A stretch of 64,000 bases of DNA from Escherichia coli (GTDB lineage: Bacteria; Pseudomonadota; Gammaproteobacteria; Enterobacterales; Enterobacteriaceae). The position numbers and the translations under genes are program-made. The stretch lies in the NCBI RefSeq assembly GCF_016903815.1, contig NZ_CP069973.1; one strand, given 5' to 3'. The notes under the pieces were generated by a model. That model was not told where the DNA came from. It made no database searches and saw only the letters and a list, made by a program, of their open reading frames with translations. Positions 19,737-62,038 of this stretch are shown here, piece after piece (positions within the stretch are counted from its first letter, which is position 1; each line of letters starts with the position of its first letter).

Positions 19737-20429
19737 TTAAAACAACGAGCCAAGCAATCCGATACCAGCACCAATGCCAGCGCCCCAAGGCGTTGATGTT
19801 CCCAAAAGGCTGGCAAGACCTGCACCGGCAATCGCACCAGACGTTCCGCCACTAATTGCTGTCTGAAGACTTGATGGTTTGTTGGCATTAGCAGCGGCAA
19901 GAGCTGCGCTTTGCTGTGCAATGCTGCTCATGTTGTTGGCGTATGTCTGCCCGGCGTTCGCCTGACCTTGCAGCGCACCAAGGCCAATGTTTGCCAGATT
20001 GTTGTAGTTGCTCATCTGGTTCGACAACCACGACTGACCGAGAGTCGGGGCAATCGTGGCCAGTTGATTGCTTGTGGCTGTCGAGCCAAGTCCCCCCGTC
20101 GCCTCCGCAGCAGCAAGACTCTGGTAACGCGCCTGACCTGCAAGGTCTTTATACTGCTGAGAGTTGTAATACTGATTAAGTGCCTGCCCCTGTCCTTCTA
20201 AACTGGAAAGATTCTGAAGCTGGTTAACATACTGCTCCGCAAGCGGAGTGAACGGAGCAAGGTTTTTCATGATCGTCTGCCACTGTTGATTTTGCAGGTC
20301 TGCGGCATACTTCTGAGCTTCTGCTGCATACTTTGCGCTTTTATCAGAGCTACCACCTTTCCCGCCTTTTTCAGGGCACCAAGGTTCCTCGCCGCGCAGT
20401 TTTCTGCCCAGCTTAAATGCATATAACAT
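19737..20429 (-). CDS. Ejection/injection protein (P22 gp7-like)
   Basis: 230 aa; Gly/Ala-rich C-terminus; synteny with P22 gene 7. Confidence 0.55.
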   Translation of the reverse strand: MLYAFKLGRKLRGEEPWCPEKGGKGGSSDKSAKYAAEAQKYAADLQNQQWQTIMKNLAPFTPLAEQYVNQLQNLSSLEGQGQALNQYYNSQQYKDLAGQARYQSLAAAEATGGLGSTATSNQLATIAPTLGQSWLSNQMSNYNNLANIGLGALQGQANAGQTYANNMSSIAQQSAALAAANANKPSSLQTAISGGTSGAIAGAGLASLLGTSTPWGAGIGAGIGLLGSLF

Positions 20430-37887: not shown

Positions 37888-37963
37888 CATGACTTCCCTC
37901 TCCCCCAAATAAAAAGGCCTGCGATTACCAGCAGGCCTGTTATTAGCTCAGTGATGTAGATGA

Positions 37964-38233
37964 TCATTGCTTCATCTCCCTTTCCATTTCATCAATGTCA
38001 ACGTCATCAGGAAGATGGGAGCAATACGCCGCTATACCATGATGATTTATCTCATACCCTTTGAACGTTACCATCTGGTGCGTAATCTCAACTTCGTTCA
38101 GGAATCCGTCATCGCATAACTGCCTGGCTATTTTCGATTTGGTCTGGATTATTGGTAGTGCCTGTTCTTTCAAAGCGCATGATATTTGTGCATCCCATGC
38201 CTTTTCGAGAATGGCTAATTGTTTTTTATTCAT
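37964..38233 (-). CDS. Hypothetical phage protein
   Basis: 89-aa ORF immediately downstream of the helicase gene. Confidence 0.35.
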   Translation of the reverse strand: MNKKQLAILEKAWDAQISCALKEQALPIIQTKSKIARQLCDDGFLNEVEITHQMVTFKGYEINHHGIAAYCSHLPDDVDIDEMEREMKQ

Positions 38234-39669
38234 CAGAATCCTCCTTTCTTCTTGGACTGCGGTTCCTCGCGTTCACGGCGGCGCATTTCAGCAGACTGTT
38301 GGTCTGTGTCATAAATAGCGCCATTTGCCTGAATGCAATACACCGTGCCGGTATTGCCATGACGATTGAGGCGAAGGATTAGTTCGGTTTCACCAGGAGG
38401 AAAGCTGTCATCAAAAGCACCTTCACGATGGATCCCAACCCAATAATCGCAATCCTGTTCAATCTGCCCTGTATCTCGTGAGTCACTTGGTAATGGGCGT
38501 TTATTGGTTCGGCTTTCCAGTGCGCGGTTAAGCTGTGTCAGAAGCACAACAACGCAATCAAGCTCTTTGGCAAGGTTCTTCAGTCCTTTGGTGATCATGC
38601 CGTAAGCAAGGTCGTTGCGATCGGCCTTTTCAGCGGTCATTAGTGTCAGGTAATCGACCAGAATCATGCCAACACATCCTTTTTCTCGCTTGATTCGACG
38701 GCTTTCGCTGACGATTTGAGCCAGAGATAATCCCGGCGTGTCGTCGATGTAAAGCAGGTCGATTTCACTCAAGCGATTGGCTGTTTCGATCGCCCTGTTG
38801 AAGTCACCATCGTAATCACCCTGATAGCCGTCATCAGCGTCATTTGTCGCCGGAAGGTAAAAAATATTGGGGTTAACACCTGACTTTTGCCCTACCAGTT
38901 TTTCCAGTATCTGGTCACCTGGCATTTCAAGGCTGAACATCAGAGCGGGCTTTTTCTCATGCACTGCGCAGTTGATTGCCATCTGGCTGTATAGCGTCGT
39001 TTTCCCCATCTTAGGGCGAGCGCCAATGACAAACAAAGAGCCTTTCACCAGACCTTTCGGTGACAGCATCCTGTCCAGCGATGGGATCCCTGTGCTCATT
39101 CCTCGTTGTTCGCCTGACGGGTCAAAACGCTTCTCAAGGTCGCTAACCCAGTCTTCCATGACCTCACCAAATGAGCGAAGTCCGCGACGCGATCCGGTTT
39201 TTGCATGGTCTGTCAGTTGCGTGAAAATCGCCTGAATAGCTTCGTACTTCTGCGTTGCAGTCATTCCGTTGCGGGAATAGAGCAATTCCGTCGCTTCAGT
39301 CATGCGGTTGATGGCGTAGCGTTCCATTGCGGTTTCGCGAACCTGCATTGCATAGGCAACGATGTTTGCTGCGCTTGGCGTGTTCTTTGCGATCTCAGCG
39401 ATATAAGCAAAACCGCCAACAGACGCCGTTAACGATTTACGCTCCAGTTCATCGAAAAGCGTCAGGCCATCTACTGGCTTTTGCTCCCGGTGCATTCTGG
39501 TTATCTCTTCGAAAAGGATTTTGTGTGGTCGGCTGTAAAATGAATCAGGCTTCAGCATCGCCAGAACTTTCTGGACGCGCTCACTGCTGTCATCATCCAG
39601 AAGCAATCCACCAATCACCGCCTGCTCTGCCTCGATGCTATGGGGCGGCGCATAAAAATTATCGGTCAT
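38233..39669 (-). CDS. Replicative DNA helicase (DnaB-like; P22 gene 12 position)
   Basis: ORF 38233-39684 (GTG) with internal ATG at 39669; Walker A 'GARPKMGKTT' and DnaB-type N-terminal domain. Confidence 0.85.
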   Translation of the reverse strand: MTDNFYAPPHSIEAEQAVIGGLLLDDDSSERVQKVLAMLKPDSFYSRPHKILFEEITRMHREQKPVDGLTLFDELERKSLTASVGGFAYIAEIAKNTPSAANIVAYAMQVRETAMERYAINRMTEATELLYSRNGMTATQKYEAIQAIFTQLTDHAKTGSRRGLRSFGEVMEDWVSDLEKRFDPSGEQRGMSTGIPSLDRMLSPKGLVKGSLFVIGARPKMGKTTLYSQMAINCAVHEKKPALMFSLEMPGDQILEKLVGQKSGVNPNIFYLPATNDADDGYQGDYDGDFNRAIETANRLSEIDLLYIDDTPGLSLAQIVSESRRIKREKGCVGMILVDYLTLMTAEKADRNDLAYGMITKGLKNLAKELDCVVVLLTQLNRALESRTNKRPLPSDSRDTGQIEQDCDYWVGIHREGAFDDSFPPGETELILRLNRHGNTGTVYCIQANGAIYDTDQQSAEMRRREREEPQSKKKGGF

Positions 39670-40558
39670 CGTGTTCACCCTCACGAACTTTCAGGTAGGT
39701 ATTGTCGTTAAGCAGGAAATCAAATCCCTTTTTGTGCCAGACGGTTCCGCGTTGATGGTTTGGGCGTTCTTCGAACATCCATCGGCAATTTTCGCCTACG
39801 TAGCTCAAATAATTTCTCCAGTCCTGCATCGTGAACCCATGTCCGTCAAGCTGGCGGGTTATCACTCCGGCTTTGCGCCAGAACGTTCGGATCTGGTTTT
39901 TACGCTTGTCATTCAGTGCGCGGATTCTTGGCGCTTCAGGAAGGATTTCGTGGTAAGCATCGACAACATCCTGACAGCTGACGGAAGGTTTTTTCTTGTC
40001 AGACTTTTTGTCTGCTGTGGCACTCTCTAATACGTCAGTATTAGAGATAATATTATTATATTCTTTATCTGTGGTAATTTGCTGGTAATCTGCTGGTACA
40101 GTATTGCTTGCAGGCATTGGTATTGCTGGCTTTGAGGTGGTAATTTGCTGGTAATCTGCTGGTACAAAACTTGACTGATAATCGTCATATTTCTCTACCG
40201 AGAAAACTGAGAATTTACCGTGTGAAACCCAGTCAATCATGCCGAGTTTTTTGAACTTTCTAAGCAGGTACTGAACGCGATCTGGTTTGAGTCCTGTTTC
40301 AAACGCCAGAGAGTTTCTACCGCCAAGTAGCTTCCCTCTGCCTACCAGAATTTCTCCTGCGTCAGTCATTACATACTCAGGCGTATGCTTTGCTTTGAGG
40401 ATTAAGTGAACCCACAGATGCGCTGCTTCTGCGTCCTTGTAAAACGGCACATCCATAATTTTACGGTGCAGCAAGGCATACCCCTTACCGCTGCTTTGAT
40501 GCGGTTGTTGTAGCCTTCTGGCCTCTCTGGCTTCGGCTAGATTAGATATGTTACTCAT
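39659..40558 (-). CDS. Replication initiation protein (lambda O / P22 gp18 functional analogue) containing ori iterons
   Basis: 299 aa; direct DNA repeats in the middle of the gene encode a duplicated [10 protein letters not shown] peptide; immediately upstream of the helicase. Confidence 0.65.
40071..40166. repeat. Putative phage replication origin iterons inside the O-like gene
   Basis: Two ~30-bp direct repeats (40071-40100, 40137-40166), each with internal sub-repeats gctggtaat(t/c)tgctggta, next to an AT-rich tract. Confidence 0.6.
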
Positions 40559-40729
40559 GACCTTTCTCCTTCTGCATCAGCTTCACTTTTTCCAACTCAG
40601 CCCGAAATCGACCAGGCTGCTTGAAGCTGGACAGGAAGCGATCACGTAGTATGTGTTTGTGAATTTTGTCCTGGTAAGGACTGAGTTGTTTTGTCATAAT
40701 TACTCCTGTGGATTGATCCAGTAATGACC

Positions 40730-41023
40730 TCAGAACTCCATCTGGATTTGTTCAGAACGCTCGGTTGCCGCCGGGCGTTTTTTATTGGTGAGAATCGAAG
40801 CAACTTGTCGTGCCAATCGAGCCATATCGTCGTCAACGACGCCCCATTCAAGAACAGCAAGCAGCATTGAGAACTTTGGAATCCAGTCCCTCTTCCACCT
40901 GCTGATCTGCGACTTATCAACTCCTACAGCTTCCGCTGTCTTCTCAGTTCCAAGCATTGCGATTTTGTTAAGCAACGCACTCTCGATTCGTAGAGCCTCG
41001 TTGCGTTTGTTTGCACGAACCAT
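40730..41023 (-). CDS. cII: Transcriptional activator CII
   Basis: ORF 40730-41083; start set at [51 protein letters not shown]...; near-identical to my memory of lambda CII (97 aa). Confidence 0.85.
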
Positions 41024-54609: not shown

Positions 54610-55407
54610 TAGTGACAGATCGTGACAAGGCAGAGCAAAAAACGACCAATATAAGAGAAATATCCCTGCCCAATCGCCAAAAGCGCGGAGCGCGGAGCGC
54701 GGCAAGCGCCGCGAGAGGCGCAAGAAGGCGAACCTATCCATTGAAACGGTCAGAAGAGCGCATCGCGCTCGATGACCGAAGTCCCCACTAACACCGTTAA
54801 CGAAAGATCAAAGTCTTAGAAAAAAATGACGTTTCTTTGAAGGGCTTCCATCCGTAAAAATCAAATTTTGAGATAAAGTACTTATAGAAATTAATCACTC
54901 TATAAGAGTGAGTTGACGTGAGTTTGAAGTGAGCAACATATTAAAAATATATATAATAATCAAACATATAATAACAACTACTGAGCAAAAATCACCAGAA
55001 AACAACGTCAACGTAACGTCACTCTGTAAGCACTTTTTCAGTCACTTTTTGGGTTGAATACACGTATAAATCCCCAACCATGAAATTTGAGCGCGTAAGC
55101 ACGACTCTGAAAGGCTTTTTATCTTTTAACCATTTAATATACCTGAGGTATTGAAGAAGATTCTGAGACATATACTAGAACTTTACCGTGCACGACTAAC
55201 AACATAAACGTTATATTTATATATAAATCAATGAGATAAATACATCCCCATCCAAAAAACAAGCATAACGCAAAATTGCGTTATCAACTTAAAAGGTACG
55301 ATTGAATCTGACAGTCTGCTCTGAGCGAAATGTGGGCACGTTCACCATAAGTCTCCAGATTGAAACGAAATGATAGTGTTAAATGTTCGATAGTTACTTT
55401 TCTAAGC

Positions 55408-60790: not shown

Positions 60791-62038
60791 CTATATTGCT
60801 GAAGGTACAGGCGTTTCCATAACTATTTGCTCGCGTTTTTTACTCAGGAAGAAAATGCCAAATAGCAACATCAGGCAGACAATACCCGAAATTGCGAAGA
60901 AAACTGTCTGGTAGCCTGCGTGGTCAAAGAGTATCCCAGTCGGCGTTGAAAGCAGCACAATCCCAAGCGAACTGGCAATTTGAAAACCAATCAGAAAGAT
61001 CGTCGACGACAGGCGCTTATCAAAGTTTGCCACGCTGTATTTGAAGACGGATATGACACAAAGTGGAACCTCAATGGCATGTAACAGCTTCACTAATGAA
61101 ATAATCCAGGGGTTAACGAACAACGCGCAGGAAAGGATACGCAACGCCATAATCACAACACCGATAAGTAATGCATTTTTTGGCCCTACCCGATTCACAA
61201 AGAAAGGAATAATCGCCATGCACAGCGCTTCGAGTACCACCTGGAATGAGTTGAGATAACCATACAGGCGCGTTCCTACATCGTGTGATTCGAATAAACC
61301 TGCATAAAAGACAGGAAAGAGTTGTTGATCAAAAATGTTATAGAAAGACCACGTCCCCACAATAAATATGACGAAAACCCAGAAGTTTCGATCCTTGAAA
61401 ACTGCGATAAAATCCTCTTTTTTTACCCCTCCCGCATCCGCCGCTATGCACTGGTGATCCTTATCTTTAAAACGCATGTTGATCATCATAAATACAGCGC
61501 CAAATAGCGAGACCAACCAGAAGTTGATATGGGGACTGATACTAAAAAATATACCGGCAAAGAACGCGCCAATAGCATAGCCAAAAGATCCCCAGGCGCG
61601 CGCTGTTCCATATTCGAAATGAAAATTTCGCGCCATTTTTTCGGTGAAGCTGTCAAGCAAACCGCATCCCGCCAGATACCCCAGGCCAAAAAAGAGCGCC
61701 CCCAGAATTAGACCTACAGAAAAATTGCTTTGCAGTAACGGTTCATAAACGTAAATCATAAACGGTCCGGTCAAGACCAGAATGAAACTCATACACCAGA
61801 TGAGCGGTTTCTTCAGACCGAGTTTATCCTGAACGATGCCGTAGAACATCATAAATAGAATGCTGGTAAACTGGTTGACCGAATAAAGTGTACCTAATTC
61901 CGTCCCTGTTAATCCTAGATGTCCTTTCAGCCAAATAGCGTATAACGACCACCACAGCGACCAGGAAATAAAAAAGAGAAATGAGTAACTGGATGCAAAA
62001 CGATAGTACGCATTTCTGAATGGAATATTCAGTGCCAT
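60791..62038 (-). CDS. cscB: Sucrose:proton symporter (oligosaccharide/H+ symporter, LacY family)
   Basis: 415-aa 12-TM protein; translation matches my memory of CscB; adjacent to cscK and divergent cscA. Confidence 0.9.
   Translation of the reverse strand: MALNIPFRNAYYRFASSYSFLFFISWSLWWSLYAIWLKGHLGLTGTELGTLYSVNQFTSILFMMFYGIVQDKLGLKKPLIWCMSFILVLTGPFMIYVYEPLLQSNFSVGLILGALFFGLGYLAGCGLLDSFTEKMARNFHFEYGTARAWGSFGYAIGAFFAGIFFSISPHINFWLVSLFGAVFMMINMRFKDKDHQCIAADAGGVKKEDFIAVFKDRNFWVFVIFIVGTWSFYNIFDQQLFPVFYAGLFESHDVGTRLYGYLNSFQVVLEALCMAIIPFFVNRVGPKNALLIGVVIMALRILSCALFVNPWIISLVKLLHAIEVPLCVISVFKYSVANFDKRLSSTIFLIGFQIASSLGIVLLSTPTGILFDHAGYQTVFFAISGIVCLMLLFGIFFLSKKREQIVMETPVPSAI

Follow-up and report, generated by a model that had tools for sequence, protein, structure and literature searches.

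Does a repeat array in the middle of a phage gene serve the encoded protein, or does it serve the replication of the DNA that carries it? This question is raised by the window analysed here, a stretch of 64,000 nucleotides from the Escherichia coli contig NZ_CP069973.1, in which the minus-strand open reading frame (ORF) 39659-40558 of a prophage contains two long identical repeats. An earlier note, made from the letters alone, read these repeats as the iterons of a replication origin embedded in the gene of its own initiator. Our analysis leads to the same reading. The feature is very likely where an HK620/HK022-type (P22-like) prophage starts its lytic replication, an origin situated within the prophage's initiator gene, in the part that codes for the linker of the protein. 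Five lines of evidence carry this: the position of the repeats between two protein domains, an adjoining A+T-rich element and palindrome, conservation at the level of DNA, covariation of the repeats with the N-terminal domain, and curated iteron annotations in related phages.

A repeat search of the window found two direct copies of a 30-nt sequence, 100% identical, at 40071-40100 and 40137-40166. Half-shifted copies of the same sequence appeared at an offset of 11 nt, and Tandem Repeats Finder reported period-11 arrays at 40067-40098 and 40138-40164. This agrees with the two direct repeats of about 30 bp with nested sub-repeats that had been described. They occupy nt 393-488 of the 900-nt ORF, mid-way in the gene as claimed, with the 30-mers beginning at gene nt 393 and 459, and the two blocks start 66 bp (6 x 11) apart. 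About 8e-12 exact 30-mers would be expected to recur within 150 bp in 64 kb of random sequence, and the 11-bp autocorrelation of the 99-bp repeat segment (0.49-0.50, against a mean of 0.256 and a standard deviation of 0.049) was the maximum among all 99-bp windows in the 64 kb. A chance origin of the repeats is therefore excluded.

Each block consists of three 11-bp units arranged head to tail, with the gene-sense consensus ATTACCAGCAR, which gives six good units in total. Every unit begins at a multiple of 11 bp, and this would place the units roughly on one face of the helix. The repeat search found no inverted repeat or dyad symmetry inside the 30-mers; the units are direct repeats. The parts of the putative origin and of its gene are given below in the order of gene sense, with coordinates in the window.

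39659-40558, minus strand: initiator gene ('O', 299 aa, 900-nt ORF) of the HK620/HK022-type prophage, containing the presumed origin.
40175-40486, minus strand: region coding for the predicted N-terminal winged-helix domain (aa 25-128, AlphaFold2), presumed to bind the iterons.
40134-40166, minus strand: iteron block A ('ori iteron 1' of phage VT2-Sakai), gene-sense units TGTACCAGCAG, ATTACCAGCAA and ATTACCACCTC.
40101-40136, minus strand: spacer between the blocks, in the 11-bp register AAAGCCAGCAA TACCAATGCCT GCAAGCAATAC.
40068-40100, minus strand: iteron block B ('ori iteron 2' of VT2-Sakai), gene-sense units TGTACCAGCAG, ATTACCAGCAA and ATTACCACAGA.
40048-40070, no strand assigned: A+T-rich stretch, presumed DNA-unwinding element, 21 of 23 bases A or T (91%), directly 3' of block B in gene sense.
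40024-40047, no strand assigned: perfect palindrome TCTCTAATAC-TGAC-GTATTAGAGA with 10-bp arms, beyond the A+T-rich stretch (inverted-repeat search).
39662-39991, minus strand: region coding for the predicted C-terminal domain (aa 190-299, AlphaFold2), presumed to recruit the helicase.

No second array of the unit was found in the 64-kb window; outside the origin there were just two isolated 9-mers. These copies of the origin core TTACCAGCA are located at 37925-37933 (plus strand) and 61861-61869 (minus strand). The core occurs four times in the window against 0.57 expected, a number reached in 1 of 100 shuffles, and the two copies outside the origin are probably due to chance. Tandem Repeats Finder listed four other short tandem repeats, at 20299-20340 (21 bp x 2), 54682-54702 (7 bp x 3), 54907-54933 (11 bp x 2.5; AGTGAGTTTGA) and 307-354 (A+T-rich, 25 bp x 1.9).

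The repeats are also translated. AlphaFold2 (AF2), run on a 111-sequence alignment, predicted two confident domains at aa 25-128 and aa 190-299 (predicted local distance difference test score, pLDDT, > 92) and a disordered linker at aa 136-183 (pLDDT < 50) which coincides with the segment encoded by the origin. The 10-residue peptide that had been reported as duplicated in the linker between the two domains is indeed encoded twice there. Mere slippage duplication in a disordered low-complexity linker could leave such a trace with no function in the DNA. The predicted disorder of the encoded segment speaks for this, as do copy-number variants of 66 bp (22 aa), which slippage between the repeats would give. 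However, a period of 11 bp cannot arise from selection on the peptide, since 11 is not a multiple of 3 and one 11-mer is read in three frames.

A comparison with homologues separates the two possibilities. The comparison set comprised phage homologues found by tblastn (L003-L010), 80 IMG/VR loci (73 unique genes) and two distant metagenomic members; the distant homologue P0256 was outside the DNA comparison. Period-11 blocks were present in 73/73 unique IMG/VR genes and 10/10 phage genes and lay 66 bp apart wherever there was more than one block. In-frame indels would be tolerable for the protein, yet nearly all of the 73 genes kept this offset; the mechanical period-11 calls scatter around it by a few bases. 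Among 11 diverged genes with the common TACCAGC-type unit (N-domain identity 79-100%), 6 of 60 columns were variable in the blocks, 3 of 30 in each block alone, compared with 27 of 36 in the spacer of the same linker (Fisher, 8e-11). The spacer is thus free in sequence and fixed in length. At third codon positions, 3 of 20 were variable in the blocks and 87 of 122 in the folded N-domain (Fisher, 2.5e-6). The conserved synonymous sites, the free spacer and the period of 11 mean that the constraint acts on the DNA and not on the peptide.

The unit itself differs between lineages. It is TTACCAGCA in the window, TACCAACA in L059, TGTCCAACG in phages L and Sf6, TGTCCAGCC in CobraSix-like phages, TGCCAACA in Klebsiella and Erwinia phages and TTNACCC in L095. 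All six copies agree within a genome, and this faithfulness of each lineage to its own unit also argues against slippage without DNA function, which we regard as extremely unlikely. Three-unit 11-bp blocks, an A+T-rich stretch and a palindrome form the shared layout, the latter two seen in the members that were printed or measured. One of the distant metagenomic members (L094, 28% identity) carries six to eight contiguous 11-bp units ACTAACCAGCA. Length variants were seen in whole 66-bp steps only: one block in L050 (277 aa), three blocks in L048 and at least 26 protein clusters (P0002-P0027; 321 aa), and four blocks in P0001 (343 aa).

The AT-rich stretch that had been placed after the repeats is real, and it lies at lower plus-strand coordinates, that is, downstream in gene sense. 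The G+C fraction is 0.175 at 40040-40079, and the best 30-bp window, with 90% A+T, belongs to the top 0.07% of the whole stretch. The homologues checked for it have an A+T-rich stretch of 72-85% at the equivalent place.

The palindrome beyond it was absent from the earlier description. As a single-stranded DNA hairpin it has a dG of -7.5 kcal/mol (z = -6.4), and at least six sequence versions exist among the homologues. In 15 distinct palindrome sequences 98% of cells were paired, 9 of 10 pairs showed two-sided changes and none showed one-sided changes; neither shuffled nor slid controls came close. The sequences were centred on the best dyad, which is a caveat for these counts; orthology of the sites is shown by their conserved flanks. 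The compensatory double changes alter the encoded residues, for example from N..L to S..E, which means that dyad symmetry outranks the peptide. By analogy, the palindrome would belong to the origin and correspond to the one that lies to the right of ori-lambda.

An RNA hairpin was considered as the main explanation of the palindrome and rejected, because its stem is A+T-rich with 3 G-C pairs only and the homologues show zero one-sided changes of the G-T type. The same two properties argue against an antisense terminator. A consensus scan does list the palindrome as terminator-like on the plus strand, and the phage L record has predicted terminators opposite the initiator strand, just downstream of its annotated ori. 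The Rfam search of the origin region gave no match.

If the array is read by the initiator, its sequence should change together with the part of the protein that reads it. Whenever the N-domain was at least 79% identical to that of the window, the unit was always TACCAGC, whatever the identity of the C-domain (39-100%). When N-domain identity was 63% or less, other units were found, even with a C-domain 93-100% identical. The unit sequence therefore tracks the N-terminal winged-helix domain and not the C-domain. The C-domain in turn tracks the helicase or loader partner. Erwinia phage Eho59 and L095 have a lambda-O-like C-domain (70% and 46% identity, respectively, to lambda O residues 178-299), and in both the next gene encodes a lambda-P-type loader. 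P22 gp18 combines lambda-type 20-bp iterons with a C-domain homologous to that of the window family (25% identity, E 1e-4) and is accompanied by a DnaB-type helicase. This means that both reciprocal hybrids exist in nature, joined at the origin. For phage L the genetic evidence is indirect only: its replication region was exchangeable as a whole according to Hilliker (1981), as cited in PMC8022706.

The same junctions could suggest that the conserved elements (repeats, A+T-rich stretch and palindrome) serve first of all as a recombination joint, at which lambdoid phages exchange the two halves of their replication module. Mosaic genes are indeed joined at this place: relative to the window, Sf6 has 45% identity in the N-domain and 100% in the C-domain, and L080 has 84% and 39%. 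However, a joint leaves unexplained why the 11-bp units covary with the N-domain and why a perfect dyad is kept through six sequences. A role in exchange is also compatible with an origin, and is probably a consequence of the junction between two functional modules. We consider it very unlikely that the joint, or a terminator in the case of the palindrome, is the primary function.

The initiator belongs to PHROG 345 ('replication initiation O-like', E 3.5e-87), and its N-domain matches DnaD-like PHROGs at 2e-19. The predicted N-domain adopts a winged-helix fold, and fold searches gave generic winged-helix similarity only. Such similarity supports a DNA-binding domain and not a specific initiator family. 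With one predicted winged helix, a separate helical C-domain and units of 11 bp, the protein does not have the tandem architecture of iteron-plasmid Rep proteins (RepA/RepE/pi type); these have two tandem winged-helix domains and iterons of 17-22 bp, and the window system differs on both. Pfam PF09681 (Phage_rep_org_N) scored E 0.09 with the window protein (13.2 bits against a cut-off of 23.3) and was matched by 11/111 relatives, with a best E of 7.4e-8. No NCBIfam match was obtained for the initiator. The family comprises 6782 representative clusters at E <= 1e-3, many distant members of which have peptide repeats at 11- or 22-aa offsets right after the N-domain. The exact window protein (P0028) was present on 158 contigs.

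The origin feature is already known, and in this respect we rediscovered an annotated element. HK620 and VT2-Sakai have the same 30-mers as the window, beginning likewise at gene nt 393 and 459. The HK620 record (AF335538) has a two-piece rep_origin over the same 96 bp, and the VT2-Sakai record (AP000422) has misc_binding features 'ori iteron 1' and 'ori iteron 2', bound by O protein, exactly at the equivalents of 40071-40100 and 40137-40166. At the homologous site the Sf6 record states 'repeat region reminiscent of the phage lambda origin; similar to phage HK620', and the phage L record 'putative origin of replication'. Six imprecise 11-bp repeats (TGTCCAACGGA) in gene 18 of phage L were described as its likely origin (Zaworski et al. 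2020, PMC8022706). The public annotation covers the two 30-mers, without the A+T-rich stretch or the palindrome. The origin region was matched in 373/5,426 complete E. coli genomes in RefSeq, where the gene is labelled 'hypothetical protein' or 'DNA replication protein' and the origin feature is absent among the matches listed. Our analysis adds the synonymous-site statistics, the fixed 66-bp phasing, the variants with 1-4 blocks, the two-way module coupling, the compensated palindrome and the mapping of the origin to the disordered linker.

How would such an origin work? P22 gene 12 encodes a DnaB-type helicase. By analogy with this gene, with lambda O and ori-lambda (PMC7466680) and with SPP1 gp38 and oriL (PMC6316719), a sequence of steps can be proposed. 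Transcription from the early rightward promoter would provide the phage DnaB-type helicase together with the 299-aa initiator, whose winged-helix N-domain would bind the six 11-bp units in their two blocks of three. The phased array would then form a wrapped nucleoprotein complex, like the lambda O-some, and destabilise the adjacent 23-bp stretch with 91% A+T. The C-domain would load the phage helicase onto the opened DNA, where host primase and polymerase would take over and the origin would fire.

Binding of the initiator to the units could also serve mainly control (autoregulation, titration, handcuffing or a block to forks or transcription), with the true origin elsewhere. Plasmid iteron arrays serve initiation and control alike. 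SPP1 gp38 at a second site was proposed to stall forks (PMC6316719), and the natural variation in block number from 1 to 4 suggests a dosage-like role. However, the repeats always adjoin the A+T-rich element and the palindrome, in the same order as in the proven lambda origin, and a further array of the unit is absent from the window. The two roles do not preclude each other, and mainly control is in our opinion a very unlikely answer.

Several observations weigh against reading the locus as a replication origin. All public annotations are worded as 'putative' or were made by analogy with lambda. The name 'O-like' given by the earlier note stands by position, architecture and the name of PHROG 345, but no sequence homology to lambda O was detectable (BLASTP best E 4.7; no match to Pfam PF04492, Phage_rep_O, with the N-domain tested to E 10). 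No close solved structure of the initiator was found, the sequence search giving one spurious match to the low-complexity linker. Since the units of the window have no dyad symmetry, the binding stoichiometry of lambda is not transferable. Linkage, and not function, may account for part of the co-inheritance of the units with the N-domain, because the DNA coding for this domain lies next to them. The literature searched makes statements on this type of origin from its sequence only, and neither a biochemical nor a genetic test (footprint, ori-plasmid assay, origin mapping) was found there; in contrast to the lambda-type origins of Stx phages (PMC7466680), it has apparently never been probed biochemically. 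In PLSDB the module was found on one 'plasmid', the linear 50-kb NZ_CP044141.1 (L096), filed as pAR-0430-4 of E. coli O157. This is an Stx2a phage genome with the O-ori-P module, probably an excised or mis-binned prophage and not a plasmid, and it is no evidence that the origin works autonomously. With a phage genome as the sole carrier, the plasmid database holds no natural minimal replicon of this type.

As a finding, the origin carries little weight: a prophage of this common type is expected to have it, and reference phages carry the annotation already. Many Stx1 and Stx2 phages (VT2-Sakai, PA-series) are amplified by means of this module. The predictions it offers concern the 11-bp unit, the fixed 66-bp phasing, the block-number variants and the compensated palindrome. 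A wider proposal can be made tentatively, and we hold it to be possible but rather doubtful. The 11-bp unit would be the true iteron, and an origin of array, A+T-rich stretch and palindrome in a disordered linker would be the common design of the 6782-cluster family. In this proposal the palindrome would be an essential element (e.g. a cruciform or a hairpin entry site for the helicase), and the 1-4 blocks would tune origin strength.

The surroundings of the initiator gene are those of a phage early region. The gene that follows it is

38233-39669, minus strand: phage DnaB-type replicative helicase ('P'; Pfam DnaB 3.5e-31, DnaB_C 4e-60), overlapping the end of the initiator gene.

This helicase is annotated as P or DnaB-like helicase in HK620 and VT2-Sakai, with a start equivalent to 39669. 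The minus-strand order is a Cro-like helix-turn-helix gene, cII, a DUF2740 gene (orf48/hkaW), the initiator and the DnaB-type helicase, which is an early-right operon, and a cI-type repressor gene is located on the plus strand. The synteny cII, orf48/hkaW, O and DnaB-type helicase (Pfam Phage_CII, DUF2740, DnaB/DnaB_C) is as in HK620 and VT2-Sakai. The wider region resembles P22-like coliphages: over 28000-52000, 69% of the sequence matches phage vB_EcoP-683R2 at 99.3% and 44% matches HK620.

Immediately upstream of the replication genes, the segment 40690-40722 reads, when reverse-complemented, as the conserved 33-bp sequence of the oop promoter and 5' end given by Hayes et al. (2012, PMC3349717). 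The segment is followed on the plus strand by gccgccgggcgttttttatt at about 40766-40790. Judged by these motifs, an oop-like antisense RNA appears to be encoded at 40690-40790 (plus strand), across from the end of cII; no Rfam family matched there. A tRNA-Arg gene with the anticodon CCU is present at 10760-10834 (plus strand). This gene is a possible attachment site of the HK620-like prophage, which occupies much of the window.

Where does this origin stand among known systems? In the closest group the element is the same and has the same neighbours. Positions 39600-40620 (1021 bp) are 99% identical in DNA to HK620, HK630, mEp235, VT2-Sakai and many Stx1/Stx2 phages with HK022-type O and P, and the region is also 99% identical to HK022. 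The window copy differs from the HK620/VT2-Sakai group in a few protein positions (S129/S130 vs S/N, and others), nothing of substance. Phages L, ST64T, ST160 and Sf6 have a homologous initiator (65-67% overall) and a DnaB-type helicase partner. The layout in these phages is identical (3 + 3 units of 11 bp, 66-bp offset, A+T-rich stretch, palindrome), whereas the unit is TGTCCAACG in place of TTACCAGCA and the N-domain is 41-57% identical. The different unit and the diverged N-domain imply a different origin specificity.

A more distant likeness is found in phage SPP1. Its oriL lies in gene 38, and the winged-helix replisome organiser gp38 was shown experimentally to bind direct repeats beside an A+T-rich unwinding element (PMC6316719). 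The window shares with SPP1 a predicted winged-helix initiator, in-gene repeats next to an A+T-rich element and a DnaB-family helicase; for the window initiator, binding would follow by analogy. The N-domain of the window family is linked to Phage_rep_org_N and DnaD-like profiles, which are those of Firmicutes phage initiators, and this relation is distant. Unlike the window, SPP1 has a separate loader (gp39) and a second origin.

The comparison with lambda and P22 had been proposed in the earlier note as a parallel to ori-lambda, and it holds for the in-gene position and the order of elements. Both origins lie inside the initiator gene, in the part coding for the inter-domain linker, and in both the repeats are followed first by an A+T-rich stretch and then by a palindrome whose centre is 4 nt long; that of lambda, at the same relative place, is GTCAGAGAATTC-4 nt-GAATCCTCTGAC. 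Lambda O and the window initiator are both 299 aa long. Lambda-type Stx phages have four or six iterons (PMC7466680), and in both groups a change in iteron number lengthens the initiator. The modular logic is also shared with lambda and P22, the N-domain going with the repeats and the C-domain with the helicase or loader. The parallel does not extend to dyad-symmetric iterons or to O homology. Lambda and P22 have four iterons of about 19-20 bp with internal dyad symmetry, spaced 20-24 bp, whereas the window has 11-bp direct units in two triplets, and the partner in lambda is the P loader of host DnaB, whereas here it is a phage DnaB-type helicase. As far as sequence comparison can tell, the window origin is an architectural analogue of ori-lambda and not its homologue at the level of the N-domain or the iterons. 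Very probably it works like the lambda origin, though it is not a member of the lambda O/ori-lambda family.

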